Shown piece by piece: positions 1,690 to 4,292 of a stretch of DNA of 4,292 bases. The stretch is from a virus. Its lineage: Duplodnaviria; Heunggongvirae; Uroviricota; Caudoviricetes. A program made the position numbers and the translations under genes. The notes under the pieces were generated by a model that saw only the letters and a list, made by a program, of their open reading frames with translations, made no database searches and was not told where the DNA came from. The stretch lies in the IMG/VR virus record IMGVR_UViG_3300000059_000174, positions 1 through 4,292 of that record. One strand, 5' to 3'. Each line of letters opens with the position of its first letter. The first letter of the stretch is position 1.

Positions 1690-2115
1690 TCAATGTACTG
1701 CCACAGCATTTCCTGCCGGACCACCACGGTTCATCTGATTGAAACCGGCGATTGCCACTGCGACAAAATCATCAGCGTCTCTCACCAGTCGCTCCCGCGT
1801 CTCCACCAGCTCCCGAAAATAAGCTGAACTGTGGCTGCGCATTCTGGCCACCAGCAAAGGTGGCATTGCCTTTTCGATTGCTGGTAACAACGCCTGAATT
1901 TTTTCAACTGCATCAGGGGTGTCTTTCTCCACCCAGCGGAAAATTTTCTGAGTATTGCGAGCCAGGGCTTCCGGATGGCTGTCGTCGTACAGTTCAGGAA
2001 ACGTCATACCCAGTTCGAAATAAGCCCTGGTTATCTCGGCTGCCGGAACTTTTTCACCGTCCGGATGCGCCCAAGCATTCATCGCCATGCGGATGTGTTC
2101 ATGCTTGATTTTCAT
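1690..2115 (-). CDS. ydaT: YdaT-like protein (cII-position early regulator of Rac-type prophages)
   Basis: 141-aa ORF beginning MKIKHEHI..., which I recall as the N-terminus typical of YdaT-family proteins. Its ATG overlaps the stop of the upstream cro-like gene (ATGA, 2112-2115), implying translational coupling. SD-like GGGAG lies 7 nt upstream. Synteny is cro-like, then this gene, then the initiator. Confidence 0.7.
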   Translation of the reverse strand: MKIKHEHIRMAMNAWAHPDGEKVPAAEITRAYFELGMTFPELYDDSHPEALARNTQKIFRWVEKDTPDAVEKIQALLPAIEKAMPPLLVARMRSHSSAYFRELVETRERLVRDADDFVAVAIAGFNQMNRGGPAGNAVAVH

Positions 2116-2372
2116 GAATCAACTCCCGCCACTTGCTGTGTGTTAGCCTGAAACTCAGCAGGCAAGCCGTCGTTTGGGTTGGGATAAATATCAGGGCGAA
2201 TTTCATGCGGGGTAACTTCCCAGCTCATTAGCTGACATAACGGAATTACCTGCTTTGGGGGAACGCCAAAGCTAAGCCATTGCCAAACAGTCTGTTGAGC
2301 GACCCCCATATAACGACCTATTTCAGCTTGAGAGAATTTCTGCCTAATTTTTTCGCGAGTGCTATCTAGCAT
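2112..2372 (-). CDS. ydaS: Cro/YdaS-like HTH DNA-binding regulator
   Basis: 86-aa ORF with a strong SD GAGGAGGG 4 nt upstream of the ATG (2370-2372 on the complement). It has an HTH segment SQAEIGRYMGVAQQTVWQWLSFGVPPK and the motif HEIRPDIYP that I associate with the YdaS/Cro-like family. It is divergent from the repressor gene across a 109-bp AT-rich intergenic region. Confidence 0.75.
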   Translation of the reverse strand: MLDSTREKIRQKFSQAEIGRYMGVAQQTVWQWLSFGVPPKQVIPLCQLMSWEVTPHEIRPDIYPNPNDGLPAEFQANTQQVAGVDS

Positions 2373-2481
2373 TTTGCCCTCCTCTAAGAACTATAGGCAA
2401 AAGACTACAATAAAAAACTGTACACAATCAACAGTTTTTTATTGTGATGCTTTTAACAGTATTTCCCTGTAAAATTAAACG
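2373..2481. promoter_or_regulatory. divergent promoter/operator region between the cro-like and repressor genes, containing the palindrome AAAACTGT-N9-ACAGTTTT (2414-2438)
   Basis: The region is AT-rich. It holds a perfect inverted repeat with 10-bp arms, AAAAAACTGT (2412-2421) and ACAGTTTTTT (2431-2440), around a 9-bp spacer. There is an extra ACAGT half-site at 2456-2460. A -10-like TAAAAT at 2470-2475 lies 7 nt before the repressor ATG. Exact -35/-10 pairs cannot be assigned with confidence. Confidence 0.6.
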
Positions 2482-2883
2482 ATGATGAACGCCTTAGAAG
2501 TATCTATGTACAGAATCAGCAAGCTTCTCCAAGAAACAGGATGGAGCCAGGCTGAGCTTGCTCGTAGAATTGGTGTGACACAACAAACTGTTCAACAATG
2601 GGTCAGCGGTAAAGCTACACCTAAAGCCTCAAGTTTGGATAAACTGGTTGAGGTTACAGGGCATCCATTGCATTGGTTTTTATTGCCTCCTGAAGAAGGT
2701 GAGCAAATCTTCACCCCTGATACGATGAAAATTGGTCCTCGCCAACGCGAACTGCTCCAGGCTTTTAGTGCGTTTCCAGAAGAAGACCAAGAAAAAATGC
2801 TTCAGGAAATCAAAGACAAGAAAAAATCAATGGAAGAAACCATTGCTCGATGGTTGGCGGCGCAAAAAATCCGCCGAGCGTGA
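2482..2883 (+). CDS. paaR2: short CI-position XRE-family HTH repressor (DicA-like / PaaR2-like), first gene of the regulator-antitoxin-toxin operon
   Basis: 133-aa ORF starting with tandem ATG ATG (2482, 2485) and no recognisable SD. N-terminal HTH: WSQAELARRIGVTQQTVQQWVSGKATPK. The C-terminal region (PRQRELLQAFSAFPEEDQEKMLQEIK...) resembles my recollection of DicA-type short repressors. There is no LexA/S24-type peptidase domain. The gene symbol rests on synteny and size only, not on an alignment. Confidence 0.8.
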   Translation: MMNALEVSMYRISKLLQETGWSQAELARRIGVTQQTVQQWVSGKATPKASSLDKLVEVTGHPLHWFLLPPEEGEQIFTPDTMKIGPRQRELLQAFSAFPEEDQEKMLQEIKDKKKSMEETIARWLAAQKIRRA

Positions 2884-2908
2884 CCAGTGAACAAAGAGGA
2901 GTTATGTC

Positions 2909-3100
2909 ATGAGTACAGCCCTTTCTCCGATAGTTTCAGAATTCGAAACTACCGAACAAGAAAACAGTTACAACGAATGGTTGCGCGCTAAAGTCGCGTC
3001 AAGCCTTGCAGATCCTCGCCCCGCAATACCGCATGACGAGGTGATGGCTGAAATGGAAAATCTTATTGCTCAAATTGCTGCGACTAGCGGGAGTGTGTAA
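2909..3100 (+). CDS. paaA2: type II antitoxin of a ParE-family toxin (PaaA2-like, 63 aa)
   Basis: 63-aa ORF with SD GAGGAG (2896-2901) 7 nt upstream of the ATG at 2909. Its stop TAA (3098-3100) overlaps the toxin ATG (3100-3102) by 1 nt (TAATG). It is small, acidic and helical in character and sits immediately upstream of a ParE-like ORF. The length matches the 63-residue PaaA2 as I recall it. Confidence 0.8.
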   Translation: MSTALSPIVSEFETTEQENSYNEWLRAKVASSLADPRPAIPHDEVMAEMENLIAQIAATSGSV

Positions 3101-3387
3101 TGCTACCCATTTTATGGCTACCATCTGCTCGCGATGATTTGCGTCAGATCGTAGCCTATATTGCCAAGGAAAATGTTCCAGCAGCTCGTAGACTAAAAAT
3201 ACGTATTGAAACGTCTGTTTTAGCCCTCTCAGAGCATCCATATCTATATCCGCCAAGTGATAGAGTATCCGGTTTGCGGGAAATTGTAGCTCACCCTAAT
3301 TATATCGTTTTGTACCGTGTAGCAGCTTCAAGCATTGAAATTGTAAATATTGTGCATGCCCGCAGACAGTTTCCCTTCCCTGCCTGA
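3100..3387 (+). CDS. parE2: ParE/RelE-superfamily toxin (ParE2-like)
   Basis: 95-aa ORF with the family-typical pattern MLPILWLPSARDDLRQIVAYIAKEN ... IVLYRV ... IEIVNIVHARR. SD GGGAG lies 6 nt upstream. It is translationally coupled to the antitoxin and followed 19 nt later by an intrinsic terminator. Confidence 0.85.
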   Translation: MLPILWLPSARDDLRQIVAYIAKENVPAARRLKIRIETSVLALSEHPYLYPPSDRVSGLREIVAHPNYIVLYRVAASSIEIVNIVHARRQFPFPA

Positions 3388-3405
3388 ACCGAAAGATTTT
3401 CACAC

Positions 3406-3429
3406 TCCCTCATACGAGGGATTTTTTTT
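3406..3429 (+). terminator. rho-independent terminator closing the repressor-antitoxin-toxin operon
   Basis: Stem TCCCTC (3406-3411), loop ATAC, stem GAGGGA (3416-3421), followed directly by eight T (3422-3429). On the minus strand there is no T-run after the hairpin, so it is unidirectional. Confidence 0.7.
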
Positions 3430-3445
3430 GCCAAAAAAACAATTT

Positions 3446-3470
3446 AAAACTGTTGACACCAAACAGTTTT
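3446..3470. promoter_or_regulatory. second copy of the operator palindrome AAAACTGT-N9-ACAGTTTT with an embedded -35 hexamer TTGACA (OL/PL-like site)
   Basis: AAAACTGT at 3446-3453, 9-bp spacer, ACAGTTTT at 3463-3470. The arms and spacing are the same as the site at 2414-2438. A consensus -35 TTGACA sits at 3453-3458. The -10 is unclear (TAGTTT-like around 3477-3482). Confidence 0.55.
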
Positions 3471-3579
3471 TAATTGTAGTTTGTTTTCACAAACCACCCC
3501 GTCCCACAGAATGCAGGGCAATACTTCGAGTTACCAGGCAGTGGTCAGGGGTTAAGTAGCCAGCCCGAGGCGTAAGAAC

Positions 3580-3813
3580 ATGACGGCAGGGTTCAACTTT
3601 AATAACTATGCAGCAGGTTTTTGTTCCGCTACCCCGGCGTTAAGGGGAAATGAGGTCAGCATGGATACTATCGATCTTGGCAACAACGAATCTCTGGTGT
3701 GCGGCGAGTTCCCCAACCAGGACGGTACGTTCACCGCGATGACATATACCAAAAACAAAACGTTTAAAACCGAATCTGGCGAGCGTCGCTGGTTAACCAG
3801 AAACACTGACTGA
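3580..3813 (+). CDS. small hypothetical protein; more likely start at ATG 3661 (50 aa) than at 3580 (77 aa)
   Basis: The ORF is on the strand expected for transcription from the PL-like promoter. The internal ATG at 3661 has SD GAGGT (3652-3656) 4 nt upstream; the ATG at 3580 has only GAGG 9 nt upstream. Stop TGA at 3811-3813. No recognisable family. Confidence 0.4.
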   Translation: MTAGFNFNNYAAGFCSATPALRGNEVSMDTIDLGNNESLVCGEFPNQDGTFTAMTYTKNKTFKTESGERRWLTRNTD

Positions 3814-3824
3814 TGAGGCTGACG

Positions 3825-3983
3825 ATGGAATTTAAAGATTTACCTCCAGACACTCAGAAAATCGCCGCAGAAACACTGAAATCTCTCATTTTGGACGAGG
3901 AGACAGAAAAGGTAGAGCCAGCTAAAAAACTGGCTCAAGAAATCAGAGAAGCCTTTATTGCTCTTTATCAGTCTTCTCCATAG
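3825..3983 (+). CDS. small hypothetical protein (52 aa), not in the supplied ORF track
   Basis: ATG at 3825 with SD GAGG (3815-3818) 6 nt upstream, 12 nt after the previous stop. It translates to MEFKDLPPDTQKIAAETLKSLILDEETEKVEPAKKLAQEIREAFIALYQSSP, ending at TAG 3981-3983. The sequence is charged and helical in character. Confidence 0.4.
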   Translation: MEFKDLPPDTQKIAAETLKSLILDEETEKVEPAKKLAQEIREAFIALYQSSP

Positions 3984-4140
3984 AGGCTTTTTTTTCTTCT
4001 TCCAATATATTGCGAATTGTAATAACTGAATTGGCCGCCTCTGAAGGGGATGACATTTTGCCAGCCCGAATTAACTCAACTGTTAAGTTCAAAGCTGCAA
4101 CAGATGGATAGGTAAATGGGTTAATTAACTTGTCTGACAT
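3955..4140 (-). CDS. small hypothetical protein (61 aa from the SD-supported ATG)
   Basis: The track ORF is 3955..4152, but the ATG on 4138-4140 is preceded by a near-perfect SD GGAGGA with a 4-5 nt spacer (ATGGAGGATAAAATG), so I call the start there. The protein is MSDKLINPFTYPSVAALNLTVELIRAGK... Its 3' end overlaps the convergent 52-aa ORF by 29 bp. Confidence 0.5.
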   Translation of the reverse strand: MSDKLINPFTYPSVAALNLTVELIRAGKMSSPSEAANSVITIRNILEEEKKASMEKTDKEQ

Positions 4141-4292
4141 TTTATCCTCCATTTAGGTTCTGGGTTAGAAATGGAGACCAACACGCTGCTACGTGTGGTC
4201 GTGCGCCGGACACGGATAAGAATCCGGCACTGACAGTTTACTGAAAGGATATTTCCCTGAAAAGTCAGGGCATAACACGAAAGCGTACGGCG

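Follow-up and report, generated by a model that had tools for sequence, protein, structure and literature searches.

Genes of the locus

The window, the whole 4,292-nucleotide stretch of DNA analysed here, contains two divergent sets of genes that are separated by a cro–repressor intergenic gap of 109 bp. Rightward (+ strand), a PaaR-type repressor of 133 residues (2482..2883) is followed in the same orientation by a PaaA-type antitoxin of 63 residues (2909..3100) and a ParE-type toxin of 95 residues (3100..3387). The repressor and paaA genes are 25 nt apart, the stop of paaA and the start of parE overlap, and a terminator-like hairpin with a T-run (3406..3421, + strand) closes the operon. Leftward (− strand) lie the genes of a Cro-like regulator of the YdaS family (86 residues, 2112..2372) and of YdaT (141 residues, 1690..2115), a functional analogue of CII.

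The repressor combines an N-terminal HTH_3 domain (PF01381, 50.8 bits against a cut-off of 23) with the conserved PaaR C-terminal domain, and it also matches Phage_CI_repr (26.3 bits). Its top PDB sequence match is the 434 repressor, and its QQTVQQW motif falls on the 434 recognition helix QQSIEQL; the HTH_3 match and the Gln-Gln pair that opens the recognition helix mark the protein as 434-repressor-like. The C-terminal 98 residues are 42% identical to PaaR2, with the highest identity in the last 45, and the N-terminal part gave no alignment to PaaR2. Pfam comparison found no Peptidase_S24 domain, the autocleavage domain of the Lambda CI/LexA-like family, in the 133-residue protein. The repressor would work like CI without belonging to that family, which unites an HTH with an S24 peptidase. 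Long repressors of the S24 type are present in other cassette types of the same backbone (L007 and L027).

The antitoxin matches the Pfam family PaaA2 (PF21217, E = 2.8e-22) and the PaaA2 structure 3zbe (E = 5.8e-23), from which its C-terminus diverges. The toxin matches ParE_toxin (PF05016, E = 1.1e-16) and is 68% identical to the CP-933P-type ParE2. The locus thus has the three-component PaaR–PaaA–ParE organization, in which a PaaA-family antitoxin precedes a ParE-family toxin and a co-oriented upstream regulator with a PaaR C-terminal domain shares their operon. For the O157:H7 systems, ParE toxicity and its neutralization by the cognate PaaA were reported by Hallez et al (2010), according to the summary in PMC4803016.

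The Cro-like protein scores 42.4 bits against the YdaS_toxin model (PF15943, cut-off 30), and its gene is intact and preceded by a strong ribosome-binding site (GAGGAGGG). An AlphaFold (AF2) model built on an 11-sequence alignment (pLDDT 87) places helix 2 at residues 15–22 and helix 3 at residues 26–35; the alignment is shallow, because the homologue search yielded just 18 clusters. A single-sequence AlphaFold model (pLDDT 61), in which helices 2 and 3 were fused, was dropped in its favour. In Foldseek comparisons, the model is closest to Xfaso 1 Cro (3bd1; TM-score 0.81, rmsd 1.3 Å) and also matches 8co2, the N-terminal domain of CP-933P YdaS; for this small domain the E-values are not significant (best 0.076), and TM-score, rmsd and probability were used instead. 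A profile of the homologues matches 3bd1 as well (E = 8e-4), and a single-sequence search against PDB sequences returned only spurious cytochrome oxidase matches. The score above the curated Pfam threshold, together with the modelled Cro-type HTH fold, places the protein in the YdaS/all-alpha Cro family (PF15943). YdaT matches the Pfam family YdaT_toxin and is 85% identical to the CP-933P-type YdaT. A predicted YdaT operator (TTGATTTTCATGAATCAA, 2105..2122), which matches TTGATTN6AATCAA exactly (0.03 chance matches expected), lies at the cro/ydaT junction; this operator was defined by footprinting, and the structure of YdaT was solved (PMC9986795). A YdaT protein and its operator at the ydaS/ydaT junction make up a CII-equivalent arm. 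The locus very probably comes from a lambdoid (Rac/CP-933-like) E. coli prophage and represents its immunity region, with a repressor/Cro switch that carries a ParE toxin–antitoxin pair.

Predicted operators and promoters

The motif ACART-N5-AYTGT occurs five times in the window, with 0.49 matches expected by chance and none of 200 shuffles reaching five. Three matches lie 24–25 bp apart between the divergent genes (OR) and two just after the toxin gene (OL), and the two regions hold this single family of repeated motifs. Within OR, the putative operator OR-a (ACAATAAAAAACTGT, 2407..2421) is an exact match that falls between the −35 and −10 of the putative cro promoter, OR-b (ACAGTTTTTTATTGT, 2431..2445) is centred 24 bp from the centre of OR-a, and OR-c (ACAGTATTTCCCTGT, 2456..2470), with one mismatch, abuts the −10 of the repressor promoter. 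Within OL, the putative operator OL-a (ACAATTTAAAACTGT, 3439..3453) is conserved in variants and is contained in a 39-nt copy of the OR palindrome that is 79% identical, and OL-b (ACAGTTTTTAATTGT, 3463..3477) lies between the −35 and putative −10 of a PL-like promoter. A palindrome had previously been noted at 2414–2438; it exists, but its extent is larger, as a perfect inverted repeat of 15+15 nt spans 2407–2445 and has these positions as its inner part.

Comparison of variants indicates which part of this repeat is the operator. OR-a is invariant in eight variants of the immunity type of the window; OR-b is likewise invariant among variants, the 9-bp spacer between the two sites is hypervariable, and in OR-c the central base alone varies. 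The OL-a/OL-b spacer measures 8 bp in four variants (L157, L160, L158 and L159), 9 bp in the window and L002, and 10 bp in L001; each 15-bp site thus behaves as a unit of its own. Alternatively, the 19-bp element ACTGT-N9-ACAGT or the whole 39-bp palindrome could be the operator unit, but both are less likely, since the OR spacer varies in sequence and the OL spacer in length while the 15-bp units stay the same. Half-site centres within the 15-bp unit are 10 bp apart, which is consistent with a 434-like dimer.

The promoters of the switch are predicted as follows. A putative PRM −10, TAAAAT (2470..2475, + strand), is followed after 6 nt by the repressor ATG at 2482, and from this short distance a leaderless mRNA is predicted. 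The repressor start of CP-933P is arranged in the same way (GATAAT, 6 nt, ATG), and its leaderless translation was demonstrated by experiment (PMC8630535). For cro-ydaT, a weak putative PR (2402..2431, − strand) would consist of a −35 TTGATT (reverse complement of 2426–2431), an 18-nt spacer and a −10 TAGTCT (reverse complement of 2402–2407); it mirrors the arrangement at PL, and its −35 is kept as TTGAT(T/C) in variants. The putative rightward PL-like promoter (+ strand), predicted by analogy, has a −35 TTGACA at 3453–3458 and a −10 TAGTTT at 3477–3482. A generic sigma-70 consensus scan of 2300–3650 called no promoter at its threshold, leaving putative PRM and PR uncalled, and the promoter assignments are therefore weak and made by analogy only. 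In a conserved block to the right of PL, Rfam and RNA folding searches found nothing.

These poor promoter scores would fit a switch that is a decayed remnant, in which the Cro-like gene has lost its function or expression and the repressor now only regulates the toxin–antitoxin pair. Such loci occur in cryptic prophages, and the annotation of the closest complete genome match (E. coli A8, 98.6%) gives cro as frameshifted, so decay of the switch is possible in such prophages. We nevertheless consider decay unlikely for the window, in which cro is intact and well supplied with a ribosome-binding site. The Cro helix residues are moreover conserved across variants, and operators that stay invariant while their spacers drift indicate ongoing selection.

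Recognition helices of the two regulators

The earlier note had claimed that the repressor and the divergent Cro-like protein share an almost identical HTH recognition segment. Both peptides that it quoted are present as given, at residues 22–48 of the repressor (2545..2625, + strand) and residues 14–40 of the Cro-like protein (2253..2333, − strand), and pairwise alignment bears the claim out: BLASTP aligned the two proteins with 25/57 identities (E = 6e-9), the 27-residue segments are identical at 16 positions, and the core GVTQQTVQQWVS of the repressor agrees with GVAQQTVWQWLS of the Cro-like protein at 9 of 12. The common segment comprises helix 2, the turn and helix 3, as the AF2 model of the Cro-like protein also places it. 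Alignment to the 434 repressor locates the recognition helix of the repressor, QQTVQQWVSG, at about residues 34–43 (2581–2610, + strand), and the modelled helices locate that of the Cro-like protein, QQTVWQWLSF, at residues 26–35 (2268–2297, − strand).

With Q, Q, T and Q at positions 1, 2, 3 and 6 of the recognition helix, the base-contacting positions, the two proteins are expected to recognize identical 15-bp sites. At position 5, the repressor has Q38 and Cro has W30, and flanking residues differ as well, differences that could produce partly different site preferences; Q38 versus W30 may set opposite orders of operator occupancy. As far as we found, the recognition helix is not mentioned in the paper on PaaR2/YdaS (Jurenas et al, 2021).

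The resemblance could be no more than generic conservation of the HTH family, with the two proteins recognizing different DNA sites and not competing. The SQAE-, G-V and W elements of the shared segment are common in HTH_3/XRE proteins, the isolated HTH segment of the repressor weakly matches the YdaS Pfam model, and the repressor scores 40 (8/12) against the Cro protein of another cassette type, L060. We compared the repressors and Cro proteins of 13 heteroimmune cassettes within one conserved backbone in a 13 × 13 matrix. The window pair scores 46 and ranks first in both directions, against 17–40 for the window repressor with the other Cro proteins. Mean scores are 35.2 for cognate and 24.9 for non-cognate pairs, and no permutation out of 200,000 attained the observed sum (p ≤ 5e-6). 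Six of the 13 cassette types have the cognate partner at the top of the ranking in both directions, which makes helix matching usual, not universal; the cognate pair of CP-933P is also matched (SYLSQLMSGRAS and SYLSQMASGRTA, 8/12).

The match between repressor and Cro thus exceeds generic family-level similarity. In addition, the repeats of both OR and OL differ in other cassette types and change together with the helices: AATAGCA-N4-CTATT accompanies TQG-VSH helices, and GTTTAGT accompanies SYLSQ helices. With one motif family present in OR and OL, and overlapping footprints reported for the paralogous pair of CP-933P, a merely generic resemblance is quite improbable.

Recent duplication or gene conversion, with helix identity as its by-product and not the outcome of selection for shared operators, is very improbable. 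The HTH segments do align without gaps and both genes lie within one exchangeable cassette, but the segments share only 49/81 nucleotides and encode 8 of their 16 identical residues by different codons, and variants with about 88% DNA identity keep the same pair of helices. Recent conversion was rejected on this codon usage.

Proposed switch and comparison with known systems

A CI/Cro-type switch on shared operators, as proposed in the earlier note, agrees with all expectations at the sequence level: the helices are matched, three OR and two OL copies are present, YdaT has its operator, and the toxin–antitoxin pair lies behind the repressor. The locus has the layout of a CI/Cro-type lambdoid switch and would by function belong to this class, with shared operators bound at differing preference and two stable states predicted from the matched helices and from their covariation with the operators, as demonstrated for the CP-933P paralogue alone. 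In the mechanism that we propose, the PaaR-type repressor, a CI equivalent that lacks a self-cleavage domain, would be transcribed rightward with the PaaA antitoxin and ParE toxin, probably on a leaderless mRNA, and the YdaS-family Cro leftward with the CII-like activator YdaT. Both regulators would read the same 15-bp sites, ACA(A/G)T-N5-A(C/T)TGT, of which three lie between the genes, spaced as lambda OR1–3, and two overlap the PL-like promoter past the toxin gene. If each regulator excluded the other from these sites, two self-sustaining states would result, and the level of toxin–antitoxin transcription would follow the state of the repressor. We infer actual binding, the order in which operators are occupied, the promoter positions and bistability by analogy with the CP-933P paralogue and phage 434. 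That the leftward YdaS/YdaT genes instead form a toxin–antitoxin module is extremely unlikely: Pfam names the families "Bacterial toxin YdaS" and "Bacterial toxin ydaT", and overexpression of Rac YdaS/YdaT is described as toxic in PMC5700373 and PMC5700377, but CP-933P YdaS and YdaT are DNA-binding regulators without toxin–antitoxin behaviour (PMC8630535), the exact operator of the structurally solved YdaT is present in the window, and the Cro-like model matches Cro structures.

The idea of a bistable CI/Cro switch at such a locus is already published for the CP-933P paralogue (Jurenas et al, 2021, mBio, PMC8630535). That study combined EMSA and DNase I footprints with reporter fusions and single-cell work, and reported that the sites bound by PaaR2 and by YdaS overlap at OR and PL, that PR, PRM and PL are repressed by both proteins, and that two heritable expression states exist, with bistability lost on mutation of either gene. 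The toxin–antitoxin operon is transcribed in both states, its level being bimodal and not on/off, and ParE2 activity was detected in neither. The HTH modules of the window are not detectably homologous to those of PaaR2/YdaS, so these experiments transfer by architecture only.

The window locus leaves the current understanding of such switches unchanged, and adds a second, heteroimmune example of a toxin–antitoxin pair wired into a prophage lysis–lysogeny switch. It yields a clean operator prediction (a 15-bp site in five copies) and a residue-level account of how both regulators would read it, helps to predict mutually immune prophages, and is of value for annotation, as the genes named "toxin YdaS" and "toxin YdaT" are here the equivalents of Cro and CII. 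As a tentative suggestion, new immunity specificities in this prophage lineage might arise by exchange of a paired module composed of the repressor HTH, the OR and OL operators and the Cro HTH; a rule of matched helices, maintained by selection, would then hold generally in at least 13 cassette types. Recombination would have its borders within both regulator genes, given that the C-terminal domain of the repressor and the C-terminal TPHEIRPDIYPNP tail of Cro stay constant. If true, this rule would predict immunity groups and operator half-sites directly from sequence.

Among known systems, lambda shares with the window the PRM–OR–PR layout, an OL/PL region past the repressor operon, three OR sites at 24–25 bp and a CII-like activator downstream of cro. 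Unlike in lambda, the window repressor has no S24 peptidase domain, Cro and the CII analogue have no sequence relationship to their lambda counterparts, and paaA-parE take the place of rexA-rexB as accessory genes.

Closely similar reading helices are the classic situation of 434 CI and Cro. In both 434 and the window, two divergent regulators with such helices (TTQQSIEQL and VKQQSIQLI in 434, where the top non-self PDB match of Cro is the repressor, E = 2e-14) face shared operators, which in the window are predicted. The 434 operator is ACAA-N6-TTGT; half-sites start with ACA in both systems, and the window sites measure 15 bp against 14 bp in 434. In contrast to 434, the window Cro belongs to the YdaS/Xfaso 1-type family and is not a 434 Cro homologue, the repressor lacks a RecA-sensitive C-terminal domain, and a toxin–antitoxin pair occupies the rexAB position.

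The CP-933P locus paaR2-paaA2-parE2/ydaS-ydaT (Jurenas et al, 2021; Hallez et al, 2010) is identical to the window in gene order and backbone, with 85% and 68% identity in YdaT and ParE, a homologous PaaA and a conserved repressor C-terminal domain. It likewise has at least three operators between the divergent genes, an OL/PL copy past the toxin gene, a leaderless-type repressor start and a recognition helix common to both members of the cognate pair. The two loci differ in that the window combines QQTV(Q/W)QW with ACART-N5-AYTGT, whereas CP-933P combines SYLSQ(LM/MA)SGR with GTTTAGT-type repeats; the window Cro has no significant sequence similarity to CP-933P YdaS, and the antitoxin C-terminus differs. 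With its DNA-binding modules and operators replaced, the window is therefore a heteroimmune type, distinct in immunity from CP-933P. O157:H7 carries two paralogous systems of the paaR-paaA-parE kind according to the literature, one of them paaR2 on CP-933P. The other locus, putatively paaR1-paaA1-parE1, is 88% identical in DNA over positions 2100–3500 of the window; its operators are the same, and its repressor and Cro helices are almost identical to those of the window. The window differs from it in about 12% of the DNA and in the C-terminal tail of Cro. By elimination, the immunity type of the window is most likely the paaR1/CP-933M type.

A lambdoid immunity region in mirror image

The window is organised like a lambdoid immunity region in mirror image, in the order O, CII-like, cro, OR, repressor, accessory genes and OL/PL. 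ORF and Pfam analysis placed a DUF977 protein at 49–507 on the minus strand, followed on the same strand by an O-like replication protein (548–1624), a YdaT-family protein (1690–2115) and an 86-residue YdaS-family HTH protein (2112–2372; Cro). A 109-bp gap separates the latter gene from that of the HTH_3 repressor (133 residues, 2482–2883), which lies on the plus strand together with a PaaA-family antitoxin (2909–3100), a ParE-family toxin (3100–3387), after which comes a terminator-like hairpin (3406–3421), and a DUF1391/ydfA gene (3580–3813). Downstream of ydfA, two small ORFs of 56 (3813–3983, plus) and 65 residues (3955–4152, minus) converge with overlapping 3′ ends; neither has a Pfam match. 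The O-like gene contains a 12-bp tandem repeat, TCTTTATCTGTA (2.9 copies, 1149–1183), which codes for DKDT repeats, and iteron-like, GTGAC-containing units of about 10 bp at 1182–1231 (4.9 copies) and 1452–1490. As in lambda, these repeats probably form a replication origin inside the initiator gene.

The window matches E. coli chromosomes, and 2100–3500 is found at a coverage of at least 80% in 507 of 5,426 complete genomes, mostly at 80–90% identity (O157:H7 and O26:H11 among them). The single match with 98.6% identity is strain A8, where the annotation lists cro as a pseudogene with a frameshift.

Matched helices of repressor and Cro

An earlier note had described a near-identical HTH segment in the two divergent regulators and read it as a CI/Cro-type bistable switch that includes the toxin–antitoxin module. 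Both peptides are present (repressor residues 22–48, Cro residues 14–40) and the likeness is significant: the segments agree at 16 of 27 residues and their cores, GVTQQTVQQWVS and GVAQQTVWQWLS, at 9 of 12, while BLASTP aligns the proteins with 25/57 identities (E = 6e-9). In the AlphaFold model of Cro (11-sequence alignment, pLDDT 87), the shared segment forms the helix-turn-helix proper, with helix 2 at 15–22, the turn at 23–25 and helix 3 at 26–35. This model superposes best on Xfaso 1 Cro (3bd1; TM 0.81, rmsd 1.3 Å), which a profile of Cro homologues also finds (E = 8e-4); further matches are 8co2 (N-terminal domain of CP-933P YdaS), N15 Cro, P22 Cro and c2, 434 Cro and lambda repressor. 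Alignment to the solved structure places the repressor's QQTVQQW on the recognition helix QQSIEQL of 434 repressor.

At the DNA level, only 49 of 81 nucleotides are alike and the codons differ for 8 of the 16 identical residues, which argues against recent gene conversion as the source of the identity. The identity is maintained at the protein level.

YdaT and PaaA were chosen as anchors because they are conserved across many prophages; they retrieved 160 related IMG/VR loci and four from E. coli genomes, with at least 13 distinct repressor/Cro pairs between the conserved flanks. Each repressor × Cro combination received the BLOSUM62 score of its best 12-residue match without gaps. The mean was 35.2 for cognate and 24.9 for non-cognate pairs, and the summed cognate score was not attained in any of 200,000 random re-pairings (p ≤ 5e-6); the window-type pair (score 46) ranked first in both directions. 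The shared helix is therefore partner-specific and not a generic HTH feature.

Putative operators, promoters and cassette edges

A perfect 39-bp palindrome at 2407–2445 recurs at 3439–3477 with 79% identity. The unit that repeats within it is 15 bp long, ACA(A/G)T-N5-A(C/T)TGT, and with up to one mismatch the window contains five such sites, all in OR (2407–2421, 2431–2445, 2456–2470) and OL (3439–3453, 3463–3477), the putative operators; 0.49 matches are expected by chance, and five occurred in 0/200 shuffles. The centres of successive OR sites are separated by 24 and 25 bp, like those of lambda. Across eight variants of this immunity type the sites are unchanged, while the 9-bp spacer separating the first OR site from the second is hypervariable and its OL counterpart measures 8, 9 or 10 bp, which singles out the 15-bp sites as the units under selection. 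Phage 434 operators also start with ACA, which a Gln-Gln pair at the helix start reads in the co-crystal structures; by analogy, the ACA-starting half-sites here may be read in the same way.

In other cassette types both OR and OL hold different repeats, which change jointly with the recognition helices: AATAGCA-N4-CTATT with TQGAVSH/TQGMVSH in locus L003, a ACACTTTTAAAGT-like repeat with QQSVQKW/PQQVVSRW in L004, and GTTTAGT with SYLSQLMSGR/SYLSQMASGR in CP-933P.

All promoter positions assigned in the window are putative. TTGACA (3453–3458), 18 nt and TAGTTT bracket the second OL site; in mirror arrangement, TTGATT, 18 nt and TAGTCT on the minus strand bracket the first OR site. A TAAAAT hexamer (2470–2475) precedes the repressor ATG by 6 nt, without a Shine-Dalgarno sequence in 2470–2484. 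A generic consensus promoter scan reported none of these elements. At the repressor start, CP-933P has the same geometry (GATAAT, 6 nt, ATG), and there a leaderless paaR2 mRNA was demonstrated (PMC8630535).

Immediately right of OL/PL, every immunity type (L001, L003, L004, L085, L138) retains a block, 3490–3580 in the window (CCCACAGAAYGCAGGGCAATACTTCGAGTTACC...GGTCAGGGG), which marks where the exchangeable cassette ends on the right. Rfam gave no match to it, and its predicted RNA folding does not surpass that of shuffled sequences (z −0.79); it could have a nut-like or leader function. The left edge lies inside cro. In the C-terminal half of the protein (2112–2260), Cro proteins with differing HTHs (window type, L003, L004, L060, L066) share a TPHEIRPDIYPNPxDGLP stretch, diverged in L063, and the final ~45 repressor residues (2750–2883) are common to PaaR2. 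Given these shared tails and differing HTH domains, both regulators have the appearance of mosaics in which a swapped HTH is joined to a constant tail. The Cro tail (window 2112–2150; L001 2500–2540; L002 2500–2773), which overlaps the ydaT start, exists in two versions, ending ...AEFQANTQQVAGVDS in the window and ...VGCKVNTSNAPELIHENQA in O157:H7. In L007, L027 and relatives, IMG/VR loci fetched with ydaT, long repressors have C-terminal halves that by eye resemble S24 peptidases (LexA-like), an extension absent from repressors with a PaaR-like C-terminus. Since both kinds share the ydaT backbone, SOS-inducible and non-inducible switches may be interchangeable at the repressor position.

Relation to CP-933P and other known switches

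The antitoxin's match to PaaA2 led to the literature on CP-933P, a cryptic prophage in which the paaR2-paaA2-parE2 operon and the divergent ydaS-ydaT encode CI, Cro and CII analogues (PMC8630535). The intergenic region is shifted and footprinted by PaaR2 as well as by YdaS, their protected stretches overlap, and either protein represses PR, PRM and a PL-like promoter; a PRE-like promoter is activated by YdaT (PMC8630535). A dual reporter showed two heritable states, lost on mutation of either regulator, with transcription of the toxin–antitoxin operon in each of them; ParE2 activity was not seen (PMC8630535). The YdaT operator, TTGATTN6AATCAA (PMC9986795), occurs exactly at 2105–2122, spanning the cro stop and ydaT start (0.03 expected by chance), where CP-933P has its PRE-like promoter.

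The true CP-933P type is L085, whose PaaR2 begins MQKKE as in the 2021 paper. Compared with it, YdaT (85% identity), ParE (68%) and PaaA, save for its C-terminus, are conserved in the window, whereas the repressor is related to PaaR2 in its C-terminal 98 residues only and Cro has no significant similarity to YdaS. The DNA-binding modules and operators thus appear to have been exchanged as one set. By elimination, we infer that the window represents the paaR1 (CP-933M) type.

Matched helices, a shared operator motif and the paralogue experiments together support the CI/Cro-type switch proposed for the window. The concept, including bimodal toxin–antitoxin transcription, is already published for the paralogue, and sharing of the recognition helix by CI and Cro is textbook knowledge; the closest non-self PDB relative of 434 Cro is 434 repressor, with a near-identical recognition helix. 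The PaaR2/YdaS pair obeys the helix-matching rule (8/12), and the term "recognition helix" did not turn up when the text of the 2021 CP-933P paper was searched. Specific to the window is a heteroimmune member for which the 15-bp operator prediction is clear, accompanied by evidence that helix matching and helix–operator covariation extend over many cassettes of its backbone.
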